Shown: positions 5,625 through 40,785 of the stretch, piece after piece
Layout of the letters: each line of letters starts with the position of its first letter
How positions within the stretch are numbered: position 1 is the first letter of the stretch
Assembly (NCBI GenBank): GCA_949299615.1
Contig: CASGBM010000001.1
Span: 8,280 to 72,279, forward strand
DNA from: an uncultured Eubacteriales bacterium
GTDB taxonomy: Bacteria > Bacillota > Clostridia > UBA1381 > UBA9506
DNA length: 64,000 nucleotides
Direction of reading: 5' to 3'
Translations under genes and position numbers: made by a program
The notes under the pieces: generated by a model
What the model was told of the DNA's origin: nothing
The model's input: the letters and a program-made list of their open reading frames with translations, nothing else
Database searches by the model: none

Positions 5625-5831
5625 ATGGTACATTCAGAAGTTTATGAAGAGTTTACATCCATATTTGCAGATTTGGTGCATCGTGTGCAGGATTGGTACC
5701 CGAACGGGAAGAACAGCATCCGCATACAATGCGCGGACAAAAAAGAATATATTTTTTCAATCGAAAGCGAAGAAAATTGGAAATTTGAGACGGTGTCCAG
5801 TTTCATCAACAATCTGAAAGGGGGAATTTGA
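5625..5831 (+). CDS. Phage hypothetical protein
   Basis: RBS AGGAGG 8 nt upstream of the ATG. Confidence 0.5.
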   Translation: MVHSEVYEEFTSIFADLVHRVQDWYPNGKNSIRIQCADKKEYIFSIESEENWKFETVSSFINNLKGGI

Positions 5832-5832
5832 T

Positions 5833-6066
5833 ATGGATGAAATGATACGGTATGTGTTCAGGAACATGAAAGAAACCGATATGACTTTAAAAATGATGAA
5901 AAAAATCCTTGCGCGGCAATCGAAAATAAACAGCGCGGTCAATCTGTCCATTACGGCTTTTGCGGTCTGCCTCATCATCCTCGAACGGAAAAGGGCTGAG
6001 CAGGACAAAAGGATAGAAGCGCTGGAAAAAAAGATGAGGGAGCGAAAAACTGCGGAAGGAGCATAG
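5833..6066 (+). CDS. Small membrane/coiled-coil protein
   Basis: RBS GGGGGA; TM segment AVNLSITAFAVCLIIL. Confidence 0.5.
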   Translation: MDEMIRYVFRNMKETDMTLKMMKKILARQSKINSAVNLSITAFAVCLIILERKRAEQDKRIEALEKKMRERKTAEGA

Positions 6067-6073
6067 GATTTTG

Positions 6074-9000
6074 ATGATTGACTTTTTAATGATTGCGACG
6101 CGCAGTACGAAGCGTGATGTAATAGAAATCTATCCAAAATTCATTATCAAAAAAAGTTCCGACTTGATGATTCGGGGCGGCGACTTCTATGCGGTATGGT
6201 TGGAAGAACGCGGGTTGTGGTCGACGGATGAACAGGACGCATTGCAGCTGATTGACCGGGAACTGGACCGGTATGCGGAAGAAAACAGCCAAAAATTTGA
6301 ATCGGGGGTCCGCATTCTGCATATGTGGGATTCGGAATCCGGTATGATTGACCGGTGGCATAAATATTGCCAGAGCCAGATGCGGGATTCGTTTCATATG
6401 CTGGATGAGAAAATGATATTTTCAAACACCGAGACCAATAAAAAAGATTACGCAAGCAAGAGGCTCCCTTATCCTCTGGAAGCCGGGGAGATCGCCGCTT
6501 ACGATAAACTGATGTCGACTTTATATTCCGAGGAGGAACGGAGGAAAATCGAATGGGCGATCGGTGCTGTTGTAACCGGGGATTCGAAAAAGATACAGAA
6601 ATTTATGGTTTTATACGGAGCTGCCGGGACCGGTAAATCAACGGTCCTAAACATCATTCAGCAATTGTTTGAAGGATATTATTCCGTATTTGACGCGAAA
6701 GCGCTCGGCTCTACCAGCAACGCCTTTGCTTTGGAAGCGTTTAAAAGCAACCCGCTTGTGGCGATCCAGCATGATGGGGATTTGTCTAAAATTGAAGACA
6801 ACACGAGGCTCAACAGTTTGGTATCGCATGAGCTCATGACTGTGAATGAAAAATTCAGATCCACTTATTCCAACCGGTTTAAGTGTTTTTTATTTATGGG
6901 GACAAACAAGCCGGTAAAGATAACGGACGCAAAGTCCGGTTTGATCCGGAGACTGATCGACGTTTCGCCGTCCGGGAATAAACTGGGCCCGAAAGAATAC
7001 AAAAACATCATGAAACAGATCGGTTTTGAGCTCGGGGCGATTGCGTATCATTGCAGGGAGGTATATTTAAGCAATCCCGGGCAGTATGACGATTATATTC
7101 CGATCACAATGCTGGGCGCGTCAAACGATTTTTATAATTTTATCGTCGACTCGTATCATGTGTTTAAAAAAGAAGACGGAACCACATTAAAAGCCGCTTG
7201 GGAGATGTACAAAACGTACTGCGACGAAGCAAAGGTCGCCTATCCGTTTTCGCAAAGGGTGTTCAAAGAAGAACTGAAGAATTATTTTCTGGAATACAAA
7301 GAGCGGTTTAATCTTGACGACGGTACAAGGGTGCGAAGTTATTATTCCGGATTCCGCACAGAAAAATTTGAGCAGCCGGCAGACGAAAAAAAGGAAGAAC
7401 CGGCGGCGTTGATTCAGCTTGACAGTACGGGATCTATATTTGACAAAGAATGCGCCGGATGTTATGCGCAGTATGCAACAGAAAGGGAAACACCGTCAAA
7501 AAAATGGGGAAAAGTGACGACAAAGCTTTCTGATATAGATACATCCAAAATACATTATGTAAAAATACCGGAAAACCATATTGTTATTGATTTTGATATT
7601 CCGGATGAGAACGGAAATAAATCATTTCAAAAAAATATGGAAGAAGCGAGCAAATGGCCCCCTACCTATGCGGAGCTCAGCAAAAGCGGAAACGGGATCC
7701 ACCTGCATTATATTTATACAGGGGACGTATCAAAGCTGAGCCGGGTATACAGCGACCATATTGAAATAAAAGTGTTTACGGGGGAAAGCTCGCTTCGCCG
7801 GAAGCTGACAAAATGTAATCGCTTGCCGATTGCAAAAATCAGTTCAGGTCTGCCAACGAAAGGAGAAAATAAAATGGTTAATTTTGAAGGGGTGAAAAGC
7901 GAAAAGGCGCTTCGAACGCTGGTAAAAAGAAACTTGAATAAGGAAATACACCCCGCGACAAAACCGAGCGTCGATTTCATCTACAAAATTTTAGAAGACG
8001 CTTACGCGAGTACGCTGAAATATGATATTTCCGACATGCGGAACGCGGTACTTGCGTTTGCGGCGAGCAGTACACATCAGGCCGATTATTGCATTAAACT
8101 TGTAAATAAGATGCATTTTAAATCGGCAGAGTCGTCTGTTAGCGTAAAAAATGACGATTCCAAATTGGTCTTTTATGACGTGGAGGTTTTTCCAAACCTG
8201 TTTTTGGTGAACTGGAAAGTCGCTGAGGATTATTCGCCGAAAGATTTTCCAACTTGGGACGCATATATACATAAATTGCGGACGAATCATAAACCTATCG
8301 TACGGATGATTAACCCAAAGCCTGCGGAAATTGAAGAACTGATGCAGTTCCGTCTGGTTGGGTTTAACTGCCGGAGGTATGACAATCATATTCAGTATGC
8401 CAGACTGATGGGCTACACAAACGAACAGCTTTATTCGCTCTCGCAGAAAATAATATCACAGAGTGCCAACTGTTTTTTTGGAGAGGCATACAATGTCTCT
8501 TATACGGACGTTTACGATTTTTCAAGCGAGAAGCAGTCGCTGAAGAAATTCGAAATAGAGCTCGGCCTGCATCATAAAGAACTGGGGCTTCCATGGGACA
8601 AGCCGGTTCCGGAAGAACTGTGGACGAAAGTCGCCGAATACTGCGACAATGATGTTTTGGCGACGGAAGCAACATTTAATGCAAGAGAAGCTGATTTCAC
8701 AGCGAGGCAGATTCTGGCGGATGTGGCTGGGATGAGCGTCAACGATACGACAAATTCGCTGACAACGAGAATTATATTTGGCAAAAACCGGACGCCGCAA
8801 GATCAGTTCCGATATAGGAACATGGGGGCCTTTCCGGAAGACGGCCGGGTCTATCATTATACCACAACAAAAGATTTGGTGCTTTACGACCGCTTTGAAG
8901 AGGGGAATTACACCGTCTTTGACGAACATGGGAAACCGATCTTTCCGGGGTACAAATATGAAAACGGGAAATCGACGTACCGCGGAGAGGAAGTCGGAGA

Positions 9001-26649: not shown

Positions 26650-27921
26650 ATGAAAATGGGTTTTATAAACAGGCTTCAGCATGGCTGGAATGCTTTTTTA
26701 AACAGAGATCCGACGGATTATTTCAAAGACATTGGCATGGGATATACCCATCGTCCGGATAGGCCGAGACTCACTAGGGGGAATGAAAAGTCGATCATTA
26801 ATTCCGTATATAACCGCATCGCTTTAGACGTTTCGTCCATTAGTATCCAACATGTAAGATTGGATGATAATGGACGATTTCTTTATGCGATGGATTCCGG
26901 ATTAAACAGATGCCTTACTGTCGAAGCAAATATCGATCAGACAGGCCGGGCGTTTATGCAGGATATCGTGATATCGATGTTCGATGAAGGATGCGTTGCT
27001 GTTGTGCCTATTGATACAACATTAAATCCGGAAATTACCGGGGCGTATGACATTGATTCGATGCGGACCGGAAGGATCCTCGAATGGTATCCAAACCATG
27101 TAAAGATACGGTTGTATGACGAAAGAGACGGAACGAAAAAAGACATTCGGCTGCCAAAGAAAATGGTGGGTATTATTGAAAATCCATTATATTCAGTGAT
27201 TAATGAACCGAATTCAACTTTGCAGCGCCTCATAAGAAAATTAAATATTCTTGATGCGATTGATGAGCAAAGCGGTTCCGGAAAGCTGGATTTGATAATT
27301 CAATTGCCGTATACCATTAAAACGGAAGCGAGACGTCAGCAGGCTGAAAAACGGCGTAAAGACATGGAGACACAATTAACAGGTTCGAAATACGGAATCG
27401 CTTACGCGGATGCAACGGAGCGTATTACACAGCTGAACCGTCCAGTCGAAAACAATCTAATGAAACAGATCGAATACCTGACGAGTATGCTGTACAGCCA
27501 GTTAGGGATTACGCAGAGTATATTAGATGGAACGGCGGACGAAAAGACAATGCTGAACTATTATAACCGTACGATTGAGCCGATTATTTCTGCCGTCGCT
27601 GATGAAATGAAACGGAAATTTCTAACAAAGACGGCGCTGGCGCAGCTTCAGTCGATTACGTTTTTTAGAGATCCGTTTAAGCTGGTTCCCGTTTCCGAGC
27701 TTTCTGAAATTGCCGATAAGTTTACAAGAAACGAAATCATGACTTCAAATGAGATAAGGCAGATTATAGGAATGAAACCATCGGACAATCCGGAGGCAGA
27801 CGAATTAAGAAACAAAAATTTAAACAAGTCGCCCGAAGAACCTTTACAAAAAGGCAACGTGGACGGCGAAGCAAAAAATGTGAATACAGAGAAGGAGGAA
27901 ATTCAAAATGGAGAAATTTGA
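26650..27921 (+). CDS. Portal protein (putative)
   Basis: 423 aa, positioned between terL and the protease-capsid gene; acidic C-terminal tail. Confidence 0.6.
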   Translation: MKMGFINRLQHGWNAFLNRDPTDYFKDIGMGYTHRPDRPRLTRGNEKSIINSVYNRIALDVSSISIQHVRLDDNGRFLYAMDSGLNRCLTVEANIDQTGRAFMQDIVISMFDEGCVAVVPIDTTLNPEITGAYDIDSMRTGRILEWYPNHVKIRLYDERDGTKKDIRLPKKMVGIIENPLYSVINEPNSTLQRLIRKLNILDAIDEQSGSGKLDLIIQLPYTIKTEARRQQAEKRRKDMETQLTGSKYGIAYADATERITQLNRPVENNLMKQIEYLTSMLYSQLGITQSILDGTADEKTMLNYYNRTIEPIISAVADEMKRKFLTKTALAQLQSITFFRDPFKLVPVSELSEIADKFTRNEIMTSNEIRQIIGMKPSDNPEADELRNKNLNKSPEEPLQKGNVDGEAKNVNTEKEEIQNGEI

Positions 27922-29629
27922 TTTTAGTGGCTGGGCCACTAGAAACGATTTACTTTGTTCTGACGGAAGAACCATTCGAAAAGACGCGTTTAAAAACAAC
28001 GATGGACAAATTGTTCCGTTGGTTTGGGAGCATCAGCATTCCAATCCGGAGAATGTATTGGGGCATGCGCTGCTTGAAAACAGGGATGAAGGAGTTTATG
28101 CGTATTGCAGCTTTAACGACAGCGAATCCGGAATGGCTGCGAAAAAACTTGTTCAGCACGGGGATGTGAAATCCCTGTCCATATACGCCAACAAACTGAA
28201 ACAAACGGGTTCGGATGTGCTGCATGGAACGATTCGGGAAGTAAGTCTGGTTCTTGCCGGAGCGAATCCCGGAGCTTTTATTGATTCTGTAATGGCTCAT
28301 GGAGACGATGGCGAAACAGGGATTATTTTGGGCTACGATGAAAATATTATGCTGTATCATTCGGAAGCAAAAACTGCTGAAAAAGATTCCGGCGAAAAGA
28401 ACGAGGAAACCGTTGCAGATGTGTTCAACACCTTAAGCGAGAAACAGAAAACAGTAGTGTATGCGATGATTGGACAGGTTCTGGAAGAGAACGATGACCC
28501 CGGCGACGAGGAGGAAGAACCTGAAACAAATAAAAAAGAGGATTCTAAAGGAGGAAATGAAACTATGAAACACAACGTATTTGACAACTTTGACAATGAT
28601 GCCGAGAAGAATGATATTTTAAGTCACTCGGAAATGGCTGCAATTTTCAGCGACATGAAGCGGTACGGCAGTTTAAAGGACAGCGTTATGGCACATGGCA
28701 TCGAACAGATCGATTATTTGTTCCCGGACGCGAAAAATGTAACCACTACGCCTCAGTTCATCCAGAGGGACATGTCTTGGGTTCAGAAGGTTATGAACGC
28801 AACGCATAAGACGCCGTTTTCCCGTATTAAATCGATTCTTGCAGATATTACAGAAGACGATGCAAGAGCAAAAGGTTATATTAAAGGCAAACTTAAGAAA
28901 GAGGAAGTATTTTCACTTCTGAAGCGTACTACAACGCCTACGACTATTTACAAGAAACAGAAAATAGACCGCGATGATGTAGTAGACATTACCGATTTCG
29001 ATGTTGTTACATGGATTAAGGCTGAAATGAGGATGATGCTGGACGAGGAAATTGCGAGAGCTGTTTTAGTCGGAGACGGAAGGTTGTCCTCAAGCGATGA
29101 CAAGATTAACGAACAGAATATTCGCCCGGTATGGACTGACGAAGATCTTTATACGGTAAAAGCTTTGGTTGAAGTTGGAAGCAGCGCGACTGCTGACGAA
29201 ACGGCCAAAGCTTTTATTCGTTCGGCTATTAAAGCGCGTAAGAATTATAAGGGTTCCGGTTCCCCGACTTTATACACCACGGAAGATATTCTTACGGATT
29301 GCCTGTTGATCGAAGACACGACCGGAAGGGTAATTTACGATTCTGTTGAAAAATTGGCCACTGCGTTAAGGGTGAAAGAAATTGTAACCGTACCGGTAAT
29401 GGAAGGACTTACAAGAACCGACACGACGAATGGTAAAGTAAATCTGATGGGTATTATCGTGAACCTCGCAGATTATAATGTCGGCGCTGACAAAGGCGGA
29501 GCGGTTAACATGTTCGATGATTTCGACATTGATTACAATGCGCAGAAGTACCTTATCGAAACCCGTTGCTCCGGCGCTTTGATTAAACCGTATTCTGCGA
29601 TCGCTCTGGAATCTAAAGTAAACCCTTAA
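27908..29629 (+). CDS. Prohead protease (HK97/S78-like) fused to major capsid protein
   Basis: N-terminal part VPLVWEHQHSNPENVLGHALLENRDEGVYAYCSF...GTIREVSLVLAGANPGAFI fits the prohead serine protease pattern. An acidic linker is followed by a ~350-aa capsid-sized C-terminal part. Confidence 0.7.
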   Translation: MEKFDFSGWATRNDLLCSDGRTIRKDAFKNNDGQIVPLVWEHQHSNPENVLGHALLENRDEGVYAYCSFNDSESGMAAKKLVQHGDVKSLSIYANKLKQTGSDVLHGTIREVSLVLAGANPGAFIDSVMAHGDDGETGIILGYDENIMLYHSEAKTAEKDSGEKNEETVADVFNTLSEKQKTVVYAMIGQVLEENDDPGDEEEEPETNKKEDSKGGNETMKHNVFDNFDNDAEKNDILSHSEMAAIFSDMKRYGSLKDSVMAHGIEQIDYLFPDAKNVTTTPQFIQRDMSWVQKVMNATHKTPFSRIKSILADITEDDARAKGYIKGKLKKEEVFSLLKRTTTPTTIYKKQKIDRDDVVDITDFDVVTWIKAEMRMMLDEEIARAVLVGDGRLSSSDDKINEQNIRPVWTDEDLYTVKALVEVGSSATADETAKAFIRSAIKARKNYKGSGSPTLYTTEDILTDCLLIEDTTGRVIYDSVEKLATALRVKEIVTVPVMEGLTRTDTTNGKVNLMGIIVNLADYNVGADKGGAVNMFDDFDIDYNAQKYLIETRCSGALIKPYSAIALESKVNP

Positions 29630-29664
29630 TTGCTCTCACGGTTGAGCCCGAATCCGGTGAGAGC
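29620..29664 (+). promoter_or_regulatory. -1 programmed frameshift signal (slippery heptamer + hairpin) at the capsid stop codon
   Basis: A_AAC_CCT (29620-26) directly before TAA. Hairpin GCTCTCAC (29632-39) / GTGAGAGC (29657-64) starts 5 nt downstream. Confidence 0.7.
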
Positions 29665-30021
29665 GAACTCTTCGGGAAACCAGTTGCTGATTTACAGGAA
29701 AACGTGATTGTCGGAAGCGATTCTATTTCCGGTAATTTAAAATATGTGACCGGCTATACCGGGTTCAGCAGCAAGGTTTCCGAACAAAGCGGAAATTATC
29801 TGGCTTTGAAGATTGCAACGGTTCCTTCTGAAAATGTGACAACGACTGTGGAAGTGGTCGGAGGAACGAAAGGGCCTGTGAAACTTGATTCCGATATGAA
29901 CATCGTGCTTCGTATTGCGAATAAGGACACGCAAAGCATCAAGGTGGTTTCCACAATGGGCGATAAATCCGTAGAGAAATTGTATCGGCTGACCGATCTT
30001 ACAATGGAATCTGCGGGCTGA
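29626..30021 (+). CDS. -1 frame extension of the capsid protein (131-aa decoration domain; ORF-track 29704..30021 is its 3' part)
   Basis: -1 frame open from 29617 to 30021; homologous to the tail extension from the first post-shift codon (PLIALTVEPESGE.. vs PLIALSVMPEDGE..). Confidence 0.65.
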   Translation, partial: LIALTVEPESGESELFGKPVADLQENVIVGSDSISGNLKYVTGYTGFSSKVSEQSGNYLALKIATVPSENVTTTVEVVGGTKGPVKLDSDMNIVLRIANKDTQSIKVVSTMGDKSVEKLYRLTDLTMESAG

Positions 30022-30047
30022 AAACAAACAAGGGAGGAAAATTCAAA

Positions 30048-30365
30048 ATGGCGAAATTTTATGGACTCATCGGATATGTCGAGACGAAAGAAATCCGCCC
30101 GGGAGTATGGGAAGAAGTAGTAACAAAACTTCCGTACTACGGCGATCTAATTCGAAACACGAGGAAATTGCAGGGATCAGAAAAAGTCAATGACGATATC
30201 AGCATTGCTAATGAGATCAGTATATTAGCCGATCCATACGCCAATGAGAATTTTCATTCGATGAGATATGTTGAATTTATGGGTGCTAAATGGAAAATTA
30301 CAGATGTTGAAGTTCAGTATCCGAGACTAATATTGACAGTCGGAGGAGTGTATCACGATGAATAA
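30048..30365 (+). CDS. Head-tail joining protein (putative)
   Basis: 105 aa between the capsid and tail tube genes; RBS AAGGGAGG. Confidence 0.4.
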   Translation: MAKFYGLIGYVETKEIRPGVWEEVVTKLPYYGDLIRNTRKLQGSEKVNDDISIANEISILADPYANENFHSMRYVEFMGAKWKITDVEVQYPRLILTVGGVYHDE

Positions 30366-30675
30366 ATTCGAAACGAAAAGGCTTGAACTGCATGAAATGC
30401 TATGCGGAATTTTAGAAAGCCGAAACGTCTATTTTCAGCCTCCGGAGTCGATAAAAATGAAATACCCCGCGATCGTATATTCAAGATCTGATATCAGGAA
30501 TACGTTTGCGGATGACAGTGTTTATAAACAGTCAAACGTTTATCAAATAACCGTAATTGATAAAAATCCGGACAGCAATATTGTCGAAAAGATATCGTCT
30601 CTTCCGGCCTGCCGGTATGACCGGCACTTTGCAACGGATCATTTAAATCATGATGTTTTTTATATTTATTATTAA
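30358..30675 (+). CDS. Tail completion / head-tail joining protein (putative)
   Basis: 105 aa, overlapping start, position only. Confidence 0.35.
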   Translation: MNKFETKRLELHEMLCGILESRNVYFQPPESIKMKYPAIVYSRSDIRNTFADDSVYKQSNVYQITVIDKNPDSNIVEKISSLPACRYDRHFATDHLNHDVFYIYY

Positions 30676-30689
30676 AGGAGGCCACTTAA

Positions 30690-31361
30690 ATGAGTAAACT
30701 GATATGGGATAAAACCGGTGAAAGACTTTATGAAGCAGGTGTAAAACAAGGGGTATTATACATACGCGATAATCTTGGCGCTTATTCGACTGGCGTTGCG
30801 TGGAATGGCTTAACCGCCGTTACGGAATCCCCGTCCGGGGCAGAAGCTACTCCTCTTTATGCCGATGATATTAAATATTTAAATTTGGTTTCGGCAGAAG
30901 AATTTGGCTGCACCATCGAAGCTTATACTTATCCTGACGAATTCGCGGAGTGTGATGGGTCTGCGTCGTTGTCGGAAGGGGTTGTCATCGGCCAGCAGAA
31001 AAGAAAGACATTTGGAATGTGCTACAAAACCTCAATCGGAAACGATGTTGACGATTTAGATCACGGCTATAAGCTCCATCTGATCTACGGAGCGGTCGCT
31101 TCTCCTTCGGAAAAAGCATATGCCACGATCAATGAATCTCCGGAAGCAATTACCTTTTCATGGGAAGTAACGACAACGCCGGTCGAGGTAAGCGGTTTTA
31201 AACCGACGGCGTCACTCACGATCGATTCCACAAAAGCAGATCCCGAGAAATTGCAAGAGTTGGAAGGAATTTTATACGGAACCGATGGAGAAGAACCGGC
31301 AGGAACCGACCCGAGACTTCCGCTTCCTGACGAAATATGCGAATTATTTACAAACCCTTAA
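30690..31361 (+). CDS. Major tail (tube) protein
   Basis: IWDKTGERLYEAGVKQGVLY...VAWNGLTAVTESPSGAE..LYADD fits major tail proteins of Firmicute siphophages; position upstream of chaperones and TMP. Confidence 0.65.
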   Translation: MSKLIWDKTGERLYEAGVKQGVLYIRDNLGAYSTGVAWNGLTAVTESPSGAEATPLYADDIKYLNLVSAEEFGCTIEAYTYPDEFAECDGSASLSEGVVIGQQKRKTFGMCYKTSIGNDVDDLDHGYKLHLIYGAVASPSEKAYATINESPEAITFSWEVTTTPVEVSGFKPTASLTIDSTKADPEKLQELEGILYGTDGEEPAGTDPRLPLPDEICELFTNP

Positions 31362-31394
31362 TAGCCCTTTCCGTTATGCCTGAAGATGGAGAGG
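31352..31394 (+). promoter_or_regulatory. -1 programmed frameshift signal at the tail-tube stop codon
   Basis: Identical heptamer A_AAC_CCT (31352-58) followed by TAA. Hairpin CCTTTCC (31366-72) / GGAGAGG (31388-94) starts 7 nt downstream. Confidence 0.7.
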
Positions 31395-31744
31395 CCGTTT
31401 TATTTGGCAAAAAAGTAAACGATTTGCAAACAGGAATTACAATAAATGAGAACAACATTACCGGGACACTGAATTATGTAACCGGATATACCGAGTTTAG
31501 CAGTAATGTTTCGGAACAAAGCGGGAATTATTTAGCGTTAAAAGTAGATTTTACGCCGGCCGATGCTGTTACAACGGTAGAAGTAGTTGGCGGAACAAAA
31601 GGTGCCGTAACGCTTGATGAAGACAAAAACATTGTGCTGCTGATTAAGAATACAACACAGAGTGTAAAAGTTATCACAAGCAAGGACGGCGCGCAGAAAG
31701 AAAAAACGTATACACTTTCCGGATTGACTTTAAAAACGGAATAG
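31358..31744 (+). CDS. -1 frame extension of the tail tube protein (128-aa decoration domain)
   Basis: Paralogous to 29626..30021: ITGTLNYVTGYTEFSSNVSEQSGNYLALKV..VTTVEVVGGTKGAVTLDEDKNIVL vs ISGNLKYVTGYTGFSSKVSEQSGNYLALKI..VTTTVEVVGGTKGPVKLDSDMNIVL. Confidence 0.65.
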   Translation, partial: LIALSVMPEDGEAVLFGKKVNDLQTGITINENNITGTLNYVTGYTEFSSNVSEQSGNYLALKVDFTPADAVTTVEVVGGTKGAVTLDEDKNIVLLIKNTTQSVKVITSKDGAQKEKTYTLSGLTLKTE

Positions 31745-31761
31745 TAAAATAATCGATTTAT

Positions 31762-31797
31762 GAGGGACGTTTCACATGCGTCCCTCTTTTATTTTTT
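31762..31797 (+). terminator. Rho-independent terminator
   Basis: GAGGGACG/CGTCCCTC stem followed by TTTTATTTTTT. Confidence 0.7.
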
Positions 31798-31812
31798 GAA
31801 AGGAGAAAGACA

Positions 31813-32214
31813 ATGATAAAAAAAACGATTACTTATACGGATTACAACGGGAACGAAAGGACGGAAGATTTTTACTTCCATTTAAATAGAGCGGAACTTA
31901 TGGAAATGGAATTGTCACAGCGCGGCGGTTTGATTGCTATGATCGACAGGATCGTGGCCGATCAGGACGGGGAGAAAATCATCAATGTCTTTAAAGACCT
32001 GATTTTGCGGTCGTACGGCGTAAAAACGCCGGACGGAAAACGGTTTATAAAAAGTGAAGAACTGCGCCGGGAGTTTGAACAAACAGAAGCGTACAGTATT
32101 CTGTTTACAGAACTTGCGACGAACACAGAAGAGGCGATCGCGTTCTTTAATAAAATCATTCCGGAAACGGAATCTGGGGAATCGAAAGAATTGCCGGTCA
32201 ATTCGAGTAATTAA
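31813..32214 (+). CDS. Tail assembly chaperone (putative)
   Basis: 133-aa acidic protein between the tube and TMP genes. Confidence 0.45.
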   Translation: MIKKTITYTDYNGNERTEDFYFHLNRAELMEMELSQRGGLIAMIDRIVADQDGEKIINVFKDLILRSYGVKTPDGKRFIKSEELRREFEQTEAYSILFTELATNTEEAIAFFNKIIPETESGESKELPVNSSN

Positions 32215-32234: not shown

Positions 32235-32780
32235 ATGCTTGAAATTACGATACCGGAAGTCGAACAGTTCGACGAGGAAAAAGAAGAATTCGTGACAGCA
32301 AAAGCACAGACCATAAAACTTGAGCATTCCCTTGTTTCCCTTTCAAAATGGGAATCAAAGTGGTGCAAACCATTTTTGTCAAAAGAAGAAAAAAGCATGG
32401 CTGAAATGATAGATTATATTCGTTGCATGACGATTACGCAAAACGTGGATCCATCTGTTTATGACAGGATCAATATGGATTTTGACCTTCTATATCGTGT
32501 AAGGCAGTACATTGACGAACCTATGACAGCCACTACATTTTCTAATTTACAAAAATCGCAGGGACGAAGAGTCGTGACGGCAGAATTAATTTATTACTGG
32601 ATGATTGCGTTAAACATCCCTTTTGAATGTCAGAAATGGCATCTAAATCGTTTGATCACATTGATTACCGTATGCAATATTGAAAACCAACCGAAAAAAA
32701 AGATGGGAAGAAACGCACAATTGAGCAGAAACGCTAGATTAAATGCCGCCAGAAGACGGCAGCTCAATACAAAAGGATAA
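32235..32780 (+). CDS. Tail assembly chaperone-like / Gp15-like protein (putative)
   Basis: Position upstream of TMP; basic C-terminus. Confidence 0.35.
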   Translation: MLEITIPEVEQFDEEKEEFVTAKAQTIKLEHSLVSLSKWESKWCKPFLSKEEKSMAEMIDYIRCMTITQNVDPSVYDRINMDFDLLYRVRQYIDEPMTATTFSNLQKSQGRRVVTAELIYYWMIALNIPFECQKWHLNRLITLITVCNIENQPKKKMGRNAQLSRNARLNAARRRQLNTKG

Positions 32781-32803: not shown

Positions 32804-33181
32804 GTGATAACCATAAAACAGAAAGGCGATTTTAAAAATACAGAACGTTTTTTGAAACGTGCTTCAAAACTGGATATCAGTAAAATCTTAAAGCGGTATG
32901 GGGAAAAAGGCGTGGCCGCCCTCGCTGCGGCAACTCCGTCCGATACCGGAAACACGGCTGGTTTATGGAATTACGAAGTACGGGTTACAAAAAATACGGC
33001 TTCTATTTCATGGACGAATTCAAAAATGGCCGGGAGCGTCCCTCTTGTAATTCTTCTTCAATATGGGCATGGCACAGGAACAGGCGGGTATGTACAGGGC
33101 AGGGATTTTATAAACCCGGCTGTGCGCCCTATTTTTGACGATATTTTGCGTGAAGCGTGGAAGGAGGTTACGAATCTATGA
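32804..33181 (+). CDS. HK97 gp10-like tail component (putative)
   Basis: GEKGVAALAAATPSDTGNTAGLWNYEV fits the gp10-family TP.DTG.TA.sW pattern; GTG start after AAAGGAGGGGG. Confidence 0.4.
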   Translation: MITIKQKGDFKNTERFLKRASKLDISKILKRYGEKGVAALAAATPSDTGNTAGLWNYEVRVTKNTASISWTNSKMAGSVPLVILLQYGHGTGTGGYVQGRDFINPAVRPIFDDILREAWKEVTNL

Positions 33182-36100
33182 GCTCGGAAGTCGATCAAAG
33201 AATAGTTGAAATGCAGTTTAATAACCGTCAGTTTGAGTCCGGTGCGCAGGAAACCATATCAACGCTTGACAAGCTGAAAAAAAGTCTGGATTTGAAGGGT
33301 GCCTCAAAAGGACTTGAGTCGGTAAGCGACGCTGCAAAAAAGTGTGATATGTCAGTTCTTCAATCGGCGGTAGAATCCGTGCGAAATAAATTTTCCGCGC
33401 TGGAAGTTATGGGGATAACGGCCCTTGCCAATATTACCAATTCTGCGGTGGATGCCGGAAAAAGGATTGCTTCTGCGCTTACGATTGACCCGATTAAAAC
33501 TGGCTTTGACGAGTATGAGACAAAAATAAATTCAATTCAGACAATCATGTCTAACACGGCCAGCAAGGGGACGACGATGGAAGACGTCACCCGTGTTATT
33601 GACGAACTGAATACATATGCGGATAAGACGATTTATAATTTCTCAGAAATGACCCGTAATATCGGGACGTTTACGGCTGCCGGCGTTGGTTTGGAAGAAT
33701 CGGCAAAAGCGATTCAAGGCATTGCAAATTTGGCAGCTGCTTCCGGTTCCAATTCGCAGCAGGCGTCAACCGCAATGTATCAGCTTTCGCAGGCTCTTGC
33801 CGCCGGAACGGTAAAACTTATGGACTGGAATTCCGTTGTGAACGCCGGAATGGGCGGCGAGAAATTTCAGGAAGCTTTAAAGCAGACGGCGAGAGAACAC
33901 GGCGTTGCGGTAGACGATATGATAGAAAAGAACGGTTCGTTTAGAGACTCGTTGCAGGAAGGCTGGTTATCGGCTGACGTTCTAAACGAAACTTTAAATA
34001 AATTTACGGTTGACGGCGCAACAAATTATGCAAAAAGCATGGTCGAGTCCGGTAAATGGACGCAGGAACAAGCTGACGCGTTGATTTCAGAAGCGCAGGC
34101 AATGGAAGATGCTGCAACAAAGGTTAAAACGTTTAGTCAGCTATGGAGCACGCTGCAAGAGTCTGTACAATCTGGATGGGGTAAAACATGGGAGATTGTA
34201 ATCGGCGACTTTGAAGAAGCAAAAAGCCTTTTTACAGAATTCAGCGATACACTTGGTAATGTTGTAAATGCCTCTGCTGATTCTAGAAATGAAATGCTGC
34301 AAACGTGGAAAGATTTGGGCGGAAGGACAGCAATTGTCGAATCTCTTAGAAATTCTTTTGAAGGGCTAGTAACCATACTAAAACCAATTAAAGAAGCATT
34401 TAGAGAAGTTTTTCCGCCGATTACAGGTGAACAGCTTGCTGATATTAGTAATAAGATCAAAGAGCTGACGGAAAATTTCAAAATAAGTGAAGCCACGGCC
34501 TCAAAAATTAAAGATACCTTTAAAGGCCTGTTTTCAATTATCAGTATTGGTAAAGAAGTTTTATCTTCTCTTATTTCAGCTCTCGGAAAAGTTGTTAAAA
34601 GCCTTATTCCAGCGGGCAACGGTATTTTAGAAATTACTTCGTCCTTGGGCGGATTTGTTACCGGGATCGATAAGGCTGTTAAGGAGACCGGAATTTTCCA
34701 AACTGTTTTCGGCGGACTTGCGAAGGCGCTCAGTTTGGCGGCAAAAGGTATCTCTCTTGCCGTTAACACAATCGCAAAAGGGTTTGGGAAGCTTGGCGAT
34801 GTTGATTTCAGCTTGTTTGAAATGTTGGAAAAGACCGCAAATGCGGTTTCAAAAGCCTTTGGTAAGTTAAAAGAGGTTTTTGGAAATGTGATGGGCGGGC
34901 TGGGTTTTGATAATATTTTTGACGTTATTAACGGCGGTGTGCTTACGGCTGTTTTACTTGGCGTCAAAAAATTTATATCTTCGTTGACGGAAATTACGTC
35001 CGGCGGCTCCGGAATACTGAATAATATTAAAGCTCTTCTGGACGGTGTCAAAGGATCTTTAGAAGCTTGGCAGTCATCCATACAGGCGAATACGATTCTT
35101 AAAATCGGAGCCGCGATCGGAATACTTGCCGCTTCTATTTTAGTCCTCTCGACCATTGATCCGGTGGCAATAACCACTTCGCTGGGCGCAATAACCGGTT
35201 TGTTTGTGGAATTATTCGGTTCGATGGTTATATTTGAAAAAATTATGAACGGCAATGGAATTAAATCCGTCGGTAAAGTTTCGGTTGCTATGATCAGCTT
35301 GTCAACGGCCGTATTAATTTTGTCAAGCGCTTTAAAAAACTTGTCGGAGCTGAACTGGTCTCAGGTGGCAAGCGGCTTGACGGCGGTCGGGGTTCTGATG
35401 GGTGAGCTGATTGCAACCTCCGTTATTATGGATAAAAACTCTGCCGGAATGGTAAAAGGCTCTGCCGGATTGATCCTGTTTTCTACCTCACTTGTCATCC
35501 TTTCAAACGCCGTAAAAAGCCTTGGCGAGCTTCCGCTGGAACAGATAGGAAAAGGCTTGCTTGGCGTTGGGGCTTTGCTGGGATCATTGGCTGTCTTTTT
35601 CAAAATGGCTGATTTTGACGGGCTCGGCATATCAAAAGGAACCGGAATTCTGTTGCTGGCCACATCGATTCAAACCCTATCGAAATCTGTTTCGACTTTT
35701 TCCGAAATGGATGTTGGAAAAATGATACAAGGCCTTTCCGCTGTCGGGACGCTTTTGGCTGAGCTTGCTATATTTACAAAAGTGACTGCGAATGCTGGAA
35801 GCGTATTATCAACTGCGGTATCGATGAATGTCTTAGGGACGGCGATGCTTCTCTTTGCCTCATCAGTTAGCTCTTTTTCTGAAAAATCATGGGACGAACT
35901 CGGAAGAGGCCTGCTGGGCTTTGCATCATCCCTTGCGGCAGTTGTCGCGGCAATGCGGCTGCTTCCTAAAAATATGGCTGGTTCCGCAGTTTCATTGGTC
36001 GCGGTATCATCAGCAATGGTGATTCTTTCGAAAGCGCTTGGGAATATGGGCGACATGAATCTGGCTCAAATAGCAAAAAGCCTGATCTCCTTAGCAGGTT

Positions 36101-39100
36101 CTTTGGGCATTATTGTTGGCGCAATGAAATTGATGACGGGAACTCTTCCGGGAGCAGCTGCGTTATTAGTAGTTTCATCGTCACTAATGGCGTTAACTCC
36201 GGTCTTGCTTGCTTTGGGGACTATGTCGCTTAGCAGTATAGCGACGTCGCTGATTGTTTTGGCGGGCTCGTTTACTGTGATAGGTGCGGCGGGATTAGCT
36301 CTTTCTCCTATTACGCCTGCGCTGATTGGTTTGAGTGCAGCAATTGCACTGGTTGGCGCCGGCTGTCTTGCCGCAGGAGCAGGTGTTTTAGCGTTTTCAA
36401 CGGGGCTTACGGCGCTTGCGGTGGCCTTTACAGCAAGCGGGGCTGCAATTGTAACCGGAATAAAAGAACTTCTGAATTTGATTCCGCTGCTGGCTGAAAA
36501 CATTGGAAAAGGAATTGTCGCAATGGCAACGGCGATTGGCAACGGCTCGGAAGCAATCGGAGAAGCGTTTAAAAAAATAGTTTTAAGTATAACGGCTTCA
36601 CTTACCGAGTGCATCCCTGCTATTGCAGAAGGGGTTCTAAAAATCATTACAGAAGTTCTAACGTCGCTCGCCGCGCATACGCCCCAGATTGTTGACTCTA
36701 TATTTGAGTTTCTCATCGGGATTTTGGAAGGGGTTGCCAGAAACCTGCCCAGTCTCATTCAGTCTGCTGTGAATGTTCTGATGTCATTTTTCACCGGTAT
36801 TGTGGATGCGATTAAAAGCATTGACACAAGCGCCTTATTAAAAGGGATTGCCGGAATTGGATTAATGGCCGGGATCATGGCTGCTCTCGGGGCTGTTGCT
36901 GGATTAATTCCGGGAGCAATGGTCGGCGTTTTGGGGATGGGCGCTGTAATTGCTGAATTAGCGCTTGTGCTGGCCGCTGTCGGAGGGCTCGCGCAGATCC
37001 CCGGATTATCTTGGCTGATTGACGAAGGAGGAAAACTTCTTCAGGGAATCGGTACGGCGATTGGATCATTTGTAGGCGGAATTGTAGGCGGGTTTATGGG
37101 CGGTATTTCAAGCCAGTTCCCGCAGATTGGGGCTGATTTGTCCGCCTTTATGACGAATGCCCGTCCGTTTATTGAAGGGGTAAGCAGTATTGATTCATCT
37201 GTTATGTCCGGAATGGCTTCTTTGGCCGGAGCTATTTTAACCCTCACAGCGGCGAATGTTTTAGAAGGTCTTACGTCTTGGTTCACAGGAGGAACTTCTT
37301 TGGCCGCATTTGGGTCGGAGCTCGCCGCATTTGCTCCATATTTTAAAGCATACTACGATTCTATTAACGGGATTGACGGTTCAGTCGTAGAAGCTTCTGC
37401 GAACGCTGCGCTCGCTCTGGCCGAATTCGCATCAAAAATCCCCAATAGCGGAGGACTTGCATCGGTATTGGCGGGAGAAAACAGCTTATCTGCGTTTGCC
37501 GATGAATTGATCGTATTCGGCCCTAAATTAAAGGCTTATGCAGACAGCGTTTCTGGGCTCAATGCAGATGTAGTTACAAATTCTGCGAATGCGGCTCTTG
37601 CTTTAGCTGAATTCGCGTCTAAGCTTCCGAACAGCGGAGGGGCTGTCAGTTGGTTCGCCGGGAACAACGATTTATCAGAATTCGCAGAAGAATTATGTAA
37701 ATTTGGCCCGAGTCTTAAAAAATATGCAGACAGCGTATCCGGACTTAATGGAGATGTGGTTAAAAACTCCGCAAATGCAGCTTCTGCGCTTGCCGAACTT
37801 GCCAACAACCTTCCGAACAGCGGCGGTGTTGTCAGTTGGTTTACGGGTGATAATAACATAGATGAATTTGGATCACAGCTTGCGGCTTTCGGCTCTAAAT
37901 TTAAAGAATATGCGGATAATATATCCGGGCTTGACGCGGGGGTAGTGACGAATTCTGCAAATGCGGCTTCTGCGCTTGCCGCGTTTGCTAACAGTTTGCC
38001 AAATAGCGGCGGACTCACCGGCCTGATATTCGGAGATAACGATATTGCGGAATTTGGAGAAAGCTTATCGTCGTTTGGCATGTGTCTTAAACTCTATTAC
38101 GATCAAATTTCTGGGGTCGATGTGTCTCAATTATCTGCCGCGACCAATGAACTTTCCCATCTGTCTAGTGTTCTGAGTGGGATAGGAACCATTAACTCGG
38201 ACGCTGTGAGCTCATTCGGAAAGGCGCTCAGTTCCATCGCCGATAGCGGCGTTAAATCATTTATCGCATCGATTAACAACGCAACGTCTCAAGTACGACA
38301 GGCTGCATCAGATCTTATTACGGCCTTTGTGAATGCGGTAAACGCAAAAAAAGATACCGTCACTTCAACATTCAGCGAAGTAACATCTTCTATCATAACT
38401 ACGATGAACGCAAGCAAGTCGTCGTTTACCACAGTCGGCGACAACATTGTAAAAGGCGTTGCCAACGGAATTACCGACACCACATTTTATGCAGAAGCAA
38501 AGGCCAGAGCAATGGCGCGGGCAGCATATAATGCGGCATGTGAGGAACTTGGTATTCGTTCGCCTTCATTGGAATTCCAATACATCGGTGAAATGATCGG
38601 AAAAGGTTTGGAAAAAGGCATTGTCAAAAGCGGGCAAGATGCGATAGATGCATCCACAGACGTCGCGGACACGCTTACTTCCGCCAGCGAAAAATCTTAT
38701 GACGATTTGACAAAATGGATCAGCGACAATGAATATTTCGGTAAAATTTCCCTCGACGAGGAACTTTATGTTTGGCGCAAGTTTCAATCGCGGTACGAAC
38801 AAGGGACAGACGAGCGCATGAAGGCCGACAAAGAAATCTACAGACTGATACAGGAAATTTCGAAAGCGGATTATCAGCATTCCATGGACTGGATTTCCGA
38901 TCAAAAAAGCAAAAATGAATTATCTCTGCAAGAGGAATTGGCGGCGTATGAACGGATGCAGTCCAGATTTGAATGGGGATCTGAAGAGCGGAAAAACATT
39001 GACAAAGAAATATACCGTTTGAGAAACGAGCTTGTCACGGAATCTTATCAACATTCCTTAGACTGGATAGAAAACGAAAAATATCATAACCGCCTTAGCT

Positions 39101-40785
39101 TGGAAGAGGAACTGGCGGCTTATGAGCGGATGCAATCGAGATATGAATGGGGGTCTGAAGAGAGGAAACAGATCGACAAAGAGATATACCGTTTGAGAAA
39201 CGAACTGATTGCCGAGTCGTATCAGAACTCCATGGATTGGATCGAGGAAGAAAAATATTATAACCGTATGAGCCTTGCCGACGAATTAGCCGCCTATACA
39301 CGCGTTCAGCAGCGGTATGACAAAGGGACGGAAGAGCGCAAAAAGATGGACCGCGAGGTTTACAGAGTGCAGCAGGAAATATATGAAGCGCGCAAGAACT
39401 ACGAAGACGAGCTCAGCCGCATTCAGGAAGAGGCCGGCGAGAAACGCTTGCAGCTGGAACAGGAGTATGCTGATAAAACAAAAGAAATTAACGATCAGCT
39501 TGCTCAGGATATACAGGCGGCGGAGGATAAGTACACCAGCGCTTTGGAGTCTAGGACAGATGCTCTGTATGATTCTTATGGTTTGTTTGACGAAGTTACA
39601 AAGAAAGACCCTGTAAGCAGTTCTGATTTAATGGACAATTTACAGCAGCAGGTAGACGAATTTTCAGATTGGCAGAAAGAGCTGGATCTGTTGTCGTCGA
39701 AAGGCTTAAACGAGGGTTTAATCGAAGAACTGCGGAAAATGGGGCCGTCGGCGATCGAAGAGATTAAAGCGCTTAATTCTATGACCGATTCCCAGCTGTC
39801 CCAATATGCGTCATTGTGGGCAACGAAACATAAACTGGCGAAAGATCAGGCAAAAAGCGAACTGGAAAATCTGCGGCTTGAGACACAGTCCGAGATTGAA
39901 ATGCTTCAAAATGAAGCCGATGACAAGCTGGAAGAATATCGCGAAACGTGGGAACAGCAGATGGAGGATCTTGAAGAGACCACAACAAAACAGACGAGAG
40001 AGCTCGCTGAAAATTTCCTGAAAGAAGTCGGTGTCATCAAACCGAGTACAGAGGAAATTATGAAAGAAACAACGGAAACGGCGAAAGATGTCCTGTTAAA
40101 TGCCGGATGGAGCGATACCGGTCAGAAAATAATGGACGGATTAACCGCCGGTGTGAGAACCGGTGCTTCGTCTTTTGTAAAAACGCTTCTTGATGTCGTA
40201 AACGATGCGACCGATAGGGTAAGCGGTCCTGACGGAATTGATGCACATTCCCCGTCAAAAGTGTATGAAAAATTGGGGCGGTATATGGATGAAGGACTGA
40301 TTGTGGGTATCAAAAAGTACGGTAAAAAAGTGGCGTCGGAAAGTGTAAAGATCGGAAAAGGTGCCGTGGCTGCTATGCTGGGTTCGCTGTCGTTGATTTC
40401 GGATATCGCATCCGGCAATATTAACATATCGCCAAGGATTCGTCCTATTTTAGAAATGGATGACGTGGTAAAAAAGATTAGTTACATGGATCATTCATTT
40501 CGTGCAGAACGAAGTCTTGCGCTGAGTGCCGCTGTTGGTGTTAGCTATCAAAATGAAATAGAGCGTTCGGAAGCACTCATTCAGAAAATCGGCGACATCA
40601 CGGCAGCGTCAAATGAAAAAGTAGTTTCGGCAATTGATTCGCTAAAAGACGACTTTGCGGATCTTTTAAGCCGGTTTGAACAACTCAAACTGGTTATGGA
40701 TACCGGCGCATTAGTTGGGGCACTGGCCTCTGACATGGATGCGGCATTAGGAAATATTGCAGTAATGAATGAGAGGGGAGTATGA
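33178..40785 (+). CDS. Tape measure protein (2535 aa)
   Basis: Typical N-terminus VDQRIVEMQFNNRQFESG, long Ala/Gly/Leu-rich hydrophobic core, two internal tandem-repeat families, located upstream of Dit/Tal. Confidence 0.9.
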   Translation: MSSEVDQRIVEMQFNNRQFESGAQETISTLDKLKKSLDLKGASKGLESVSDAAKKCDMSVLQSAVESVRNKFSALEVMGITALANITNSAVDAGKRIASALTIDPIKTGFDEYETKINSIQTIMSNTASKGTTMEDVTRVIDELNTYADKTIYNFSEMTRNIGTFTAAGVGLEESAKAIQGIANLAAASGSNSQQASTAMYQLSQALAAGTVKLMDWNSVVNAGMGGEKFQEALKQTAREHGVAVDDMIEKNGSFRDSLQEGWLSADVLNETLNKFTVDGATNYAKSMVESGKWTQEQADALISEAQAMEDAATKVKTFSQLWSTLQESVQSGWGKTWEIVIGDFEEAKSLFTEFSDTLGNVVNASADSRNEMLQTWKDLGGRTAIVESLRNSFEGLVTILKPIKEAFREVFPPITGEQLADISNKIKELTENFKISEATASKIKDTFKGLFSIISIGKEVLSSLISALGKVVKSLIPAGNGILEITSSLGGFVTGIDKAVKETGIFQTVFGGLAKALSLAAKGISLAVNTIAKGFGKLGDVDFSLFEMLEKTANAVSKAFGKLKEVFGNVMGGLGFDNIFDVINGGVLTAVLLGVKKFISSLTEITSGGSGILNNIKALLDGVKGSLEAWQSSIQANTILKIGAAIGILAASILVLSTIDPVAITTSLGAITGLFVELFGSMVIFEKIMNGNGIKSVGKVSVAMISLSTAVLILSSALKNLSELNWSQVASGLTAVGVLMGELIATSVIMDKNSAGMVKGSAGLILFSTSLVILSNAVKSLGELPLEQIGKGLLGVGALLGSLAVFFKMADFDGLGISKGTGILLLATSIQTLSKSVSTFSEMDVGKMIQGLSAVGTLLAELAIFTKVTANAGSVLSTAVSMNVLGTAMLLFASSVSSFSEKSWDELGRGLLGFASSLAAVVAAMRLLPKNMAGSAVSLVAVSSAMVILSKALGNMGDMNLAQIAKSLISLAGSLGIIVGAMKLMTGTLPGAAALLVVSSSLMALTPVLLALGTMSLSSIATSLIVLAGSFTVIGAAGLALSPITPALIGLSAAIALVGAGCLAAGAGVLAFSTGLTALAVAFTASGAAIVTGIKELLNLIPLLAENIGKGIVAMATAIGNGSEAIGEAFKKIVLSITASLTECIPAIAEGVLKIITEVLTSLAAHTPQIVDSIFEFLIGILEGVARNLPSLIQSAVNVLMSFFTGIVDAIKSIDTSALLKGIAGIGLMAGIMAALGAVAGLIPGAMVGVLGMGAVIAELALVLAAVGGLAQIPGLSWLIDEGGKLLQGIGTAIGSFVGGIVGGFMGGISSQFPQIGADLSAFMTNARPFIEGVSSIDSSVMSGMASLAGAILTLTAANVLEGLTSWFTGGTSLAAFGSELAAFAPYFKAYYDSINGIDGSVVEASANAALALAEFASKIPNSGGLASVLAGENSLSAFADELIVFGPKLKAYADSVSGLNADVVTNSANAALALAEFASKLPNSGGAVSWFAGNNDLSEFAEELCKFGPSLKKYADSVSGLNGDVVKNSANAASALAELANNLPNSGGVVSWFTGDNNIDEFGSQLAAFGSKFKEYADNISGLDAGVVTNSANAASALAAFANSLPNSGGLTGLIFGDNDIAEFGESLSSFGMCLKLYYDQISGVDVSQLSAATNELSHLSSVLSGIGTINSDAVSSFGKALSSIADSGVKSFIASINNATSQVRQAASDLITAFVNAVNAKKDTVTSTFSEVTSSIITTMNASKSSFTTVGDNIVKGVANGITDTTFYAEAKARAMARAAYNAACEELGIRSPSLEFQYIGEMIGKGLEKGIVKSGQDAIDASTDVADTLTSASEKSYDDLTKWISDNEYFGKISLDEELYVWRKFQSRYEQGTDERMKADKEIYRLIQEISKADYQHSMDWISDQKSKNELSLQEELAAYERMQSRFEWGSEERKNIDKEIYRLRNELVTESYQHSLDWIENEKYHNRLSLEEELAAYERMQSRYEWGSEERKQIDKEIYRLRNELIAESYQNSMDWIEEEKYYNRMSLADELAAYTRVQQRYDKGTEERKKMDREVYRVQQEIYEARKNYEDELSRIQEEAGEKRLQLEQEYADKTKEINDQLAQDIQAAEDKYTSALESRTDALYDSYGLFDEVTKKDPVSSSDLMDNLQQQVDEFSDWQKELDLLSSKGLNEGLIEELRKMGPSAIEEIKALNSMTDSQLSQYASLWATKHKLAKDQAKSELENLRLETQSEIEMLQNEADDKLEEYRETWEQQMEDLEETTTKQTRELAENFLKEVGVIKPSTEEIMKETTETAKDVLLNAGWSDTGQKIMDGLTAGVRTGASSFVKTLLDVVNDATDRVSGPDGIDAHSPSKVYEKLGRYMDEGLIVGIKKYGKKVASESVKIGKGAVAAMLGSLSLISDIASGNINISPRIRPILEMDDVVKKISYMDHSFRAERSLALSAAVGVSYQNEIERSEALIQKIGDITAASNEKVVSAIDSLKDDFADLLSRFEQLKLVMDTGALVGALASDMDAALGNIAVMNERGV
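37288..38175 (+). repeat. TMP internal tandem repeat, ~5 units of 186 bp (62 aa)
   Basis: P-N-S-G-G landmarks at 37444, 37630, 37816 and 38002 (spacing exactly 186). Unit approximates NSGG..S.F.G.N.L.EFA.EL..FG..LK.YADSVSGL..DVV.NSANAA.ALAEFA..LP. Confidence 0.9.
38701..39405 (+). repeat. TMP internal tandem repeat, 4 units of 174 bp (58 aa)
   Basis: (K/D)W(I) landmarks at 38713, 38887, 39061 and 39235. Unit approximates DWI..EKY.N.LSLEEELAAYERMQSRYEWGSEERK.IDKEIYRLRNEL..ESYQ.S. Confidence 0.9.

Follow-up and report, generated by a model that had tools for sequence, protein, structure and literature searches.

The DNA considered here is a stretch of 64,000 nucleotides (nt), referred to below as the window, from an uncultured Eubacteriales bacterium (GTDB lineage Bacteria; Bacillota; Clostridia; UBA1381; UBA9506; GenBank assembly GCA_949299615.1, contig CASGBM010000001.1, positions 8,280 to 72,279 of the forward strand), in which a siphophage structural module is encoded, with terminase, portal, tail chaperone and tape-measure genes around the genes for the capsid and the tail tube. 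At the stop codon of the capsid gene, a -1 programmed ribosomal frameshift very probably adds a domain of 131 amino acids (aa) to the capsid protein, as judged from the sequence, and the same signal recurs at the end of the tail-tube gene, about 1.7 kb past the capsid junction. Such a frameshift was the core proposal of an earlier note on this DNA, along with the view that the open reading frame (ORF) of 105 aa called from a GTG codon within the extension is a miscall, and the reading frames, the motifs, the covariation in the hairpin, the natural fusions and the tests of alternative starts all agree with it.

The capsid gene encodes a fusion of a prohead protease with a major capsid protein (MCP). 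Its ORF matches Peptidase_S78 of Pfam over residues 21-126 (E 1e-5) and, weakly, Phage_capsid of Pfam over residues 312-563, phrog_3270 covers it over its full length (E 1e-228), and its homologs in actinophages bear the annotation 'major capsid and protease fusion protein.' The 0 frame ends in GAA TCT AAA GTA AAC CCT TAA (positions of all features are collected in Table 1). The -1 frame is closed upstream by a stop codon of its own that limits entry into it to positions 29617-29626, which are the 10 nt shared by the 0-frame and the -1-frame ORFs, and the slippery motif is inside this overlap. Past this stop codon, the -1 frame reads AAA CCC TTA ATT GCT and stays open up to a TGA at 30019-21, and the first ATG, GTG, or TTG codon found in it is the GTG at 29704. 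The long product is predicted at 704 aa (573 + 131), next to the short product of 573 aa. On re-reading the sequence, every coordinate that had been given for the capsid junction, its frames and its hairpin arms was borne out, and so were the lengths of both products. The heptamer alone is not significantly enriched in the window (10 copies versus 9.15 expected). The 11-mer AAACCCTTAAT is present in exactly two copies in the 64 kb, with 0.05 expected, one at the capsid and one at the tail junction.

At the tail junction, the gene ends in ACA AAC CCT TAA TAG, with the shared 11-mer at the stop and with the motif (31352-58) again inside the overlap of the two frames, and it is followed by a hairpin whose register matches the helix found family-wide (see below). 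The long form predicted here is of 351 aa. Over 131 residues, the capsid and tail extension peptides share 59% identity (E = 8e-49), in line with the homology of the post-shift peptides recognized in the earlier note.

The comparative evidence comes from 90 loci (13 from genomes, 76 from viral contigs, and one from a phage record; designated by L numbers below), in which every copy of the domain was mapped. The genomes include those of Hungatella, Enterocloster, [Ruminococcus] torques, Cuneatibacter, and other Clostridia, and the single phage record, the only one in the INPHARED collection with the domain, is unannotated. In all of the approximately 106 junctions that are not fused, the domain is in the -1 frame, and in none is it in the +1 frame. 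A slip-prone Z_ZZN motif forms the last sense codon or codons, at the same position, in about 101 of these 106 junctions, so that the question posed in the earlier note, of whether AAACCCT plus stop is conserved in related phages, is answered by that motif or by another slippery one. The majority class is A_AAC_CCT TAA, at capsid and tail genes alike. Other classes are A_AAC_CCC TAA, C_CTC_CCT TAA, ACT_TTT TAA, and T_TTA_AAA TAA (L001), and in some loci the motif is found one codon ahead of the stop, as A_AAC_CCC TCC TAA (L022) or as C_CCA_AAA GCG TAA (L089, L090). The C-terminal residues encoded differ with the motif class (ENP, VNP, DLP, ETF, NPS, PKA, LK), and thus it is the slip-prone run that is conserved and not the peptide. 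The terminal tetramers of all the classes are C_CCU, C_CCC, U_UUU, and A_AAA, which are four of the six tetramers prone to frameshifting in Escherichia coli (Sharma et al., 2014; PMC4066793). A literature search combining this phage group with frameshifting returned nothing relevant.

The second component of the signal is the hairpin. The earlier note had pointed to a perfect hairpin of 8 base pairs (bp) after the capsid site; its arms are indeed perfectly complementary, and the minimum free energy (MFE) fold lengthens the stem, the capsid-site hairpin (8-12 bp) having a folding energy of -16.9 kcal/mol (z = -3.35 against dinucleotide shuffles). Motif and hairpin are separated by 3-5 nt in the window and by 5-8 nt in the relatives, whose junctions each form a stem of about 12 bp that is capped by a 9-nt loop. 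In an alignment of 23 distinct junctions, the 12-bp helix is 93.8% paired, with double-sided changes at 7 of the 12 pairs, and its covariation score is 0.464, compared with 0.09-0.16 (and 47-59% paired) when the partners are slid by 1-3 columns; none of 500 shuffles reaches the observed values. The arms encode conserved peptides, ALTV and GESE, and the pairing could partly be a by-product of coding. In the loci with in-frame fusions, however, only 4-7 of the 12 positions are pairable at the same codons, versus 11-12 in most of the frameshift-type loci, and this loss of pairing in the fused loci disfavors the coding explanation. No match to Rfam was found in 29400-31900. A stimulator of the dnaX type, an upstream sequence resembling a Shine-Dalgarno (SD) sequence, was considered as well and is not claimed here: GAGGA is found 8 nt before the heptamer in many of the capsid relatives (L016-L061), but neither the window nor the tail sites contain it.

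Natural fusions provide a further line of evidence. The tail protein and the domain are encoded as a single ORF in 24 loci, and the capsid protein and the domain are encoded as a single ORF in one (L014). The predicted capsid product of 704 aa aligns with the single ORF of L014 at 55.5% over 807 columns, contiguously across the junction, and the predicted tail product of 351 aa aligns with the single ORFs of L081, L008, and L012 at 63-65% over 350 columns, likewise contiguously, one example of a junction-spanning alignment being ...PLPDEICELFTNPLIALSVMPEDGEA versus ...PLPEEVIQLLKPSVAVTASPESADA. At the junction, the fused loci have AAG CCT or other codons that are not slippery. Homologs without the domain are also found (27 for the capsid and five for the tail), and a Z_ZZN motif is present in none of the 32; these genes end, for example, in GCC GGT TAA, GGC GGC TAA, GCA GCA TAA, or AGC GAG TAA, followed by the SD sequence and the ATG of the next gene. 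On the evidence of these comparisons, the domain is a movable C-terminal module with three states, absent, fused, and frameshifted, and the slippery motif and the hairpin accompany the frameshifted state only.

Some individual loci deserve a comment. In L025, the tail extension (around 5730-6090) is a deletion variant, in which the junction has the sequence GAA AAT CAG TAA ATG and the match to the domain starts only at residue 19, with no motif, no hairpin, and no first strand; this copy may be decayed, or it may be independently initiated and truncated. L013 (CAKXAF010000002.1) is binned as an 'uncultured thaumarchaeote' and possesses a Clostridia-type module with an in-frame tail::domain fusion. 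Both the start of its tail gene and its domain junction are identical to those of L012, a metagenome-assembled genome of the Oscillospiraceae, and the thaumarchaeote label is probably a binning artifact. L091 (ena:ERZ28752572 contig_8102) has a copy of the same module with a 100% identical extension ORF, a capsid gene cut to 285 aa, and transposase genes of the rve family inserted on either side; it resembles a prophage in decay.

As to the nature of the extension, both copies match phrog_31690, a family whose function is listed as unknown, and neither matches any Pfam family, even at E <= 1. The AlphaFold2 model is an eight-strand, all-beta sandwich with a predicted local distance difference test (pLDDT) score of 90. 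The best matches of this model in a Foldseek search against PDB are immunoglobulin (Ig) domains, and they are weak (E 0.007-0.03, template modeling score approximately 0.4). Against BFVD, the matches are to three uncharacterized phage proteins, and a profile search of the PDB sequences with the extension produced no credible match. The domain is plausibly Ig-like, going by the model. It is not Big_2 (PF02368), for which neither of the window extensions gives a match, even at E <= 1. The fold prediction suggested in the earlier note thus gives a beta-sandwich, and the term Ig-like is to be trimmed to weakly Ig-like.

The following sequence of events can be proposed. Most of the ribosomes on the protease::capsid mRNA would terminate at the UAA (29627-29), producing the protein of 573 aa. 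A minority would be stalled by the hairpin 3-5 nt downstream, and in these the tRNA-Pro paired with CCU, and probably also the tRNA-Asn paired with AAC, would shift back by one base onto CCC (and AAA). UUA would be read next, and translation would proceed to 30021, yielding a protein of 704 aa (...ESKVNP-LIALTVEPE...) with a C-terminal beta-sandwich of about 130 residues. At 31352-61, the same signal would produce the long tail-tube form of 351 aa, and the junction peptides expected in the phage of the window are VNPLIALTVEPESGESELFGKPVADLQ... and ...ELFTNPLIALSVMPEDGEAVLFGK. The long and the short forms would co-assemble, and a set fraction of the capsid and tail subunits would show the domain on the virion surface. 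We infer actual slippage at these sites, and its efficiency, as well as the surface exposure of the domain and its adhesin-like role.

The number of tRNAs that slip, one or two, and the contribution of the adjacent stop are likewise matters that we infer. The heptamer of the window permits tandem re-pairing, AAC to AAA and CCU to CCC, and in L022, L089, and L090, in which the heptamer is one codon before the stop, a tandem or an A-site slip would be needed. In most of the junctions, on the other hand, the motif abuts the stop, and thus a slip of a single tRNA-Pro, with UAA in the A site, is possible, and the C_CTC_CCT class has no XXX run. The two routes predict an identical peptide, ...VNP-LIAL.... 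A minimal signal, consisting of C_CCU, UAA, and the hairpin, at which a lone tRNA-Pro would slip by -1 at a slowly decoded stop instead of two tRNAs slipping on a heptamer, fits both the C_CTC_CCT TAA variants and the nearly universal abutment of motif and stop; we consider it a tentative idea, with the odds somewhat against it. Such a site would mirror, in the -1 direction, what the Listeria phages and SPP1 have in their +1 CCC_UGA sites. The designation of the site in the earlier note as a canonical heptamer is correct as to the X_XXY_YYZ register, but tandem slippage on the full heptamer does not follow, as the C_CTC_CCT of the relatives points to the tetramer C_CCU/C as the conserved core.

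A number of observations weigh against frameshifting at these sites, or temper the evidence for it. Many of the relatives have TAATG at their tail junctions, where AUG overlaps the stop and termination-reinitiation could contribute, and a weak AGGA is found 4 nt upstream of the GTG at 29704. The high-efficiency heptamers of bacteria do not include A_AAC_CCU, and the related A_AAC_CCA is below the threshold in E. coli (PMC4066793). In five related junctions, a single C to T change disrupts the CCC run: L027 and L061 (tail, AAC CTT TAA), L051 (AAC TCT TAA), L060 (CTC TCT TAA), and L043 (tail, CTC CTT TAA). ATG overlaps the stop in four of these five, and there reinitiation may take place; errors of assembly and inactivation of the sites are further possibilities for the disrupted junctions. 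Finally, the related loci are not phylogenetically independent, and the counts given above overstate the replication.

The reinitiation just mentioned belongs to the main alternative, that the extension is a separate gene for a free decoration protein, translated from an internal start (GTG 29704 for the capsid, ATG 31337 or 31376 for the tail) or through reinitiation at an AUN codon overlapping the stop. This we consider unlikely. The alternative is in agreement with the treatment of the extension by gene callers and by PHROG, as a stand-alone protein, with the phrog_31690 profile beginning at residue 25 of the extension, and the database entries of the domain are called as stand-alone proteins of 105-151 aa as well; the profile begins at that residue owing to the internal starts from which its members had been called. 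In the window, the codon that overlaps the stop is ATT at the capsid and ATA at the tail junction, neither of them a start codon, and no AUG, GUG, or UUG overlaps or adjoins the upstream stop at either of them, as termination-reinitiation would call for. Among the relatives, this codon is ATC in most of the capsid junctions and ATG, ATA, ATT, or ACA in the tail junctions, and over half of the unique junctions have a non-start codon (ATC, ATA, ATT, ACA, ACT) in this position; with the codon so variable, a start at the stop is not conserved. The hairpin, which is stable, covers the putative site of reinitiation. None of the candidate starts of the extensions is preceded by an SD sequence: the SD duplexes of the genuine genes of the module range from -9.7 to -15.2 kcal/mol, versus -4.3 to +1.3 for these candidates (GTG 29704, -4.3; ATT 29629, -3.3; ATG 31337, -0.3; ATA 31361, -0.9; ATG 31376, +1.3). 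A start farther upstream is impossible at the capsid site, as the stop that closes the -1 frame is 4 nt ahead of the heptamer, and a start at the GTG would truncate the predicted fold, with one strand of the AlphaFold2 model (5-10) upstream of the GTG position and another (26-31) spanning it; the invariant residues K20, L25, and Q26 also precede this position. A separate gene would, in addition, leave unexplained the Z_ZZN motif, its in-register alternatives, and the natural in-frame fusions.

The existence of these fusions can be turned into a different argument, of a decaying gene, in which an ancestral in-frame capsid::domain or tail::domain fusion has been hit by an indel of 1 nt and the downstream ORF is silent or expressed at the level of noise. 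A few junctions with disrupted motifs and the one tail copy that is N-terminally deleted would fit this scenario as well. We find it very unlikely, as decay would have to account for a -1 offset that recurs at one and the same codon, accompanied by a slip-prone motif and by a hairpin that covaries, in about 100 junctions from divergent lineages and in two genes, for domain ORFs that are open and conserved (57-84% identity, 35 invariant positions), and for a hairpin that is present specifically where the frame is broken. Least probable of all, to the point of being hardly credible, is an origin of the long form in transcriptional slippage, or a frame break that is an error of sequencing or assembly. 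Indels in homopolymers are common assembly errors, and nothing more specific speaks for this possibility. RNA polymerase slippage needs runs of 8-9 nt or more, and the runs at the site are just AAA and CCC, of 3 nt, making transcriptional slippage implausible; the identical junction is also present in independent assemblies. Frameshifting by the ribosome remains by far the best explanation for the junctions of the window.

Frameshift-appended Ig-like domains on capsid and tail proteins of phages are well documented (PMC5009743; PMC8718954; reference list of PMC5221750), and several systems can be compared with that of the window. The closest is Lactobacillus phage A2 (NC_004112), in which a -1 shift takes place at the 3' end of both the capsid (gp5A/gp5B) and the tail gene (gp10A/gp10B), with an identical signal and one type of domain: the capsid gene ends in ACC CCA AAA GCG TAA and the tail gene in GCC CCA AAA GCG TAG, and both of the -1 extensions are Big_2 of Pfam (E 3.5e-7 and 1.6e-17). 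Both A2 frameshifts have been demonstrated, according to the titles of Garcia et al. 2004 (J Bacteriol 186:1714) and Rodriguez et al. 2005 (J Bacteriol 187:8201). The A2 signal, C_CCA_AAA GCG TAA, is shared by two relatives of the window, L089 and L090. The window itself differs in employing A_AAC_CCT that abuts the stop, while in A2 C_CCA_AAA GCG is followed by TAA or TAG, in a domain of about 130 aa without a Pfam family, compared with the 80-aa Big_2 of A2, and in a capsid protein that is a protease::MCP fusion; its shift is a predicted one. The suggestion in the earlier note that it is unusual for capsid and tail to share one signal and one domain does not stand, A2 having C_CCA_AAA GCG plus stop and Big_2 on both genes, and the arrangement in the window is a new, unannotated instance of the A2 pattern.

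Another example is presented by the Listeria phages A118, A500, and PSA, whose Cps and Tsh proteins have long forms that arise through recoding (Zimmer 2003, Dorscht 2009, summarized in Atkins et al., 2016; PMC5009743). As predicted for the window, the capsid and tail-shaft proteins both gain a C-terminal extension when recoding takes place at a proline codon that adjoins a stop or an RNA structure, but the shifts in the tail genes are +1 at CCC_UGA, and that of the PSA cps is also +1, while both of those predicted in the window are -1 at C_CCU_UAA. In Bacillus phage SPP1 (gp17.1/gp17.1*), the tail-tube protein gains an Ig-fold FN3 domain through a frameshift, and its short form co-assembles with the long one in a ratio of about 3:1 (Auzat 2008; reviewed in PMC8718954); the domain of gp17.1* is dispensable and is proposed to bind cell-wall carbohydrates (PMC8718954). 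SPP1 differs from the window in its +1 shift, in its FN3 domain, and in the restriction to the tail. In phages T3 and T7 (10A/10B), a minor, longer capsid protein is made when ribosomes shift by -1 shortly before the major capsid gene ends (PMC5009743). These phages are podophages; their slippery site is a different one, and their tail has no corresponding event. Promiscuous beta-sandwich Ig modules on phage structural proteins, of the families I-set, FN3, and Big_2, either fused in frame or added through a frameshift, were reportedly surveyed by Fraser et al. 2006 (J Mol Biol 359:496). The fused, frameshifted, and absent states of the family described here fit this picture of a promiscuous module, and the domain of the window differs in that it appears to be outside of I-set, FN3, and Big_2, the Pfam test for the last of these being negative.

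Table 1. Features of the capsid and tail-tube junctions in the window
Feature	Position	Strand	Remarks
Prohead protease::major capsid protein fusion gene	27908..29629	+	573 aa, short product of the 0 frame; Pfam and PHROG matches
TAA closing the -1 frame upstream	29614..29616	+	limits entry into the extension frame to 29617-29626
Slippery motif A_AAC_CCT, X_XXY_YYZ register	29620..29626	+	core tetramer C_CCT at 29623-26
0-frame capsid stop TAA	29627..29629	+	directly 3' of the motif; read from the sequence
-1-frame capsid extension (predicted)	29626..30021	+	131 codons, TTA at 29626 to TGA at 30019-21; beta-sandwich domain, phrog_31690
Putative stimulatory hairpin after the capsid site	29630..29666	+	perfect core GCUCUCAC 29632-39 / GUGAGAGC 29657-64; MFE stem 29630-41 / 29654-66
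Major tail (tube) protein gene	30690..31361	+	223 aa; phrog_2645, E 5e-107
Second slippery motif A_AAC_CCT	31352..31358	+	tail-gene stop TAA at 31359-61
-1-frame tail extension (predicted)	31358..31744	+	128 codons, same domain family as the capsid extension
Hairpin after the tail site	31364..31396	+	core arms 31366-75 / 31385-94; -12.1 kcal/mol, z -2.68

Some observations can also be made on the neighboring genes. The gene directly after the capsid extension, 30048-30365, matches DUF7253 of Pfam in its identical copies on other contigs, and is probably a component of the head-tail connector. The tail assembly chaperone (31813-32214) aligns with Phage_TAC_17 of Pfam, a profile of 178 positions, over positions 1-123 only, and its -1 frame is closed at 32208-10; a frameshift site of the lambda type, G/GT, was sought at this gene, and none was found. 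The gene downstream of it, 32235-32780 (phrog_4338, of unknown function), has a strong SD sequence of its own. The tape-measure ORF (33157-40785) is very long, at 2,542 aa, with internal repeats of NSANAA.ALAEFA..PNSGG (approximately four to five times) and EELAAYERMQSRYEWGSEERK..DKEIYRL (approximately three times). The GTG start listed for this ORF has no SD sequence, and thus the true start is probably an ATG about 21 nt downstream.

The main value of the finding is corrective, in the annotation of mis-called ORFs, and the general understanding of recoding is not changed by the site in the window. A protein search returned 1,355 homologs of the extension, of which the best 120 are all stand-alone calls of 104-151 aa, and the entries among these 120 that are named by their source are labeled 'hypothetical protein.' Among 16 homolog sequences inspected, some start at an arbitrary methionine (MSLSV, MINLTV, MPESGE, MLLGK, MFGK), and others have about 20 residues of out-of-frame junk before ...GKPLI. 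More than 1,300 stand-alone hypothetical entries, of 105-151 aa, should be, instead, C-terminal extensions of capsid or tail proteins. The domain of phrog_31690 is without an entry in Pfam, and the RNA element is without an entry in Rfam.

The phages in question are prophages of human-gut Clostridia, and a surface beta-sandwich carried by a set fraction of the subunits of head and tail alike would be a candidate adhesin for glycans of the host envelope or of mucus. The series of frameshifted, fused, and absent states permits a direct test of whether partial occupancy matters. If the minimal signal of C_CCU, UAA, and hairpin proves true, then this family, with its more than 1,300 homologs in prophages of gut Clostridia, would be a ready system for studying how recoding sets the stoichiometry of virion decoration.

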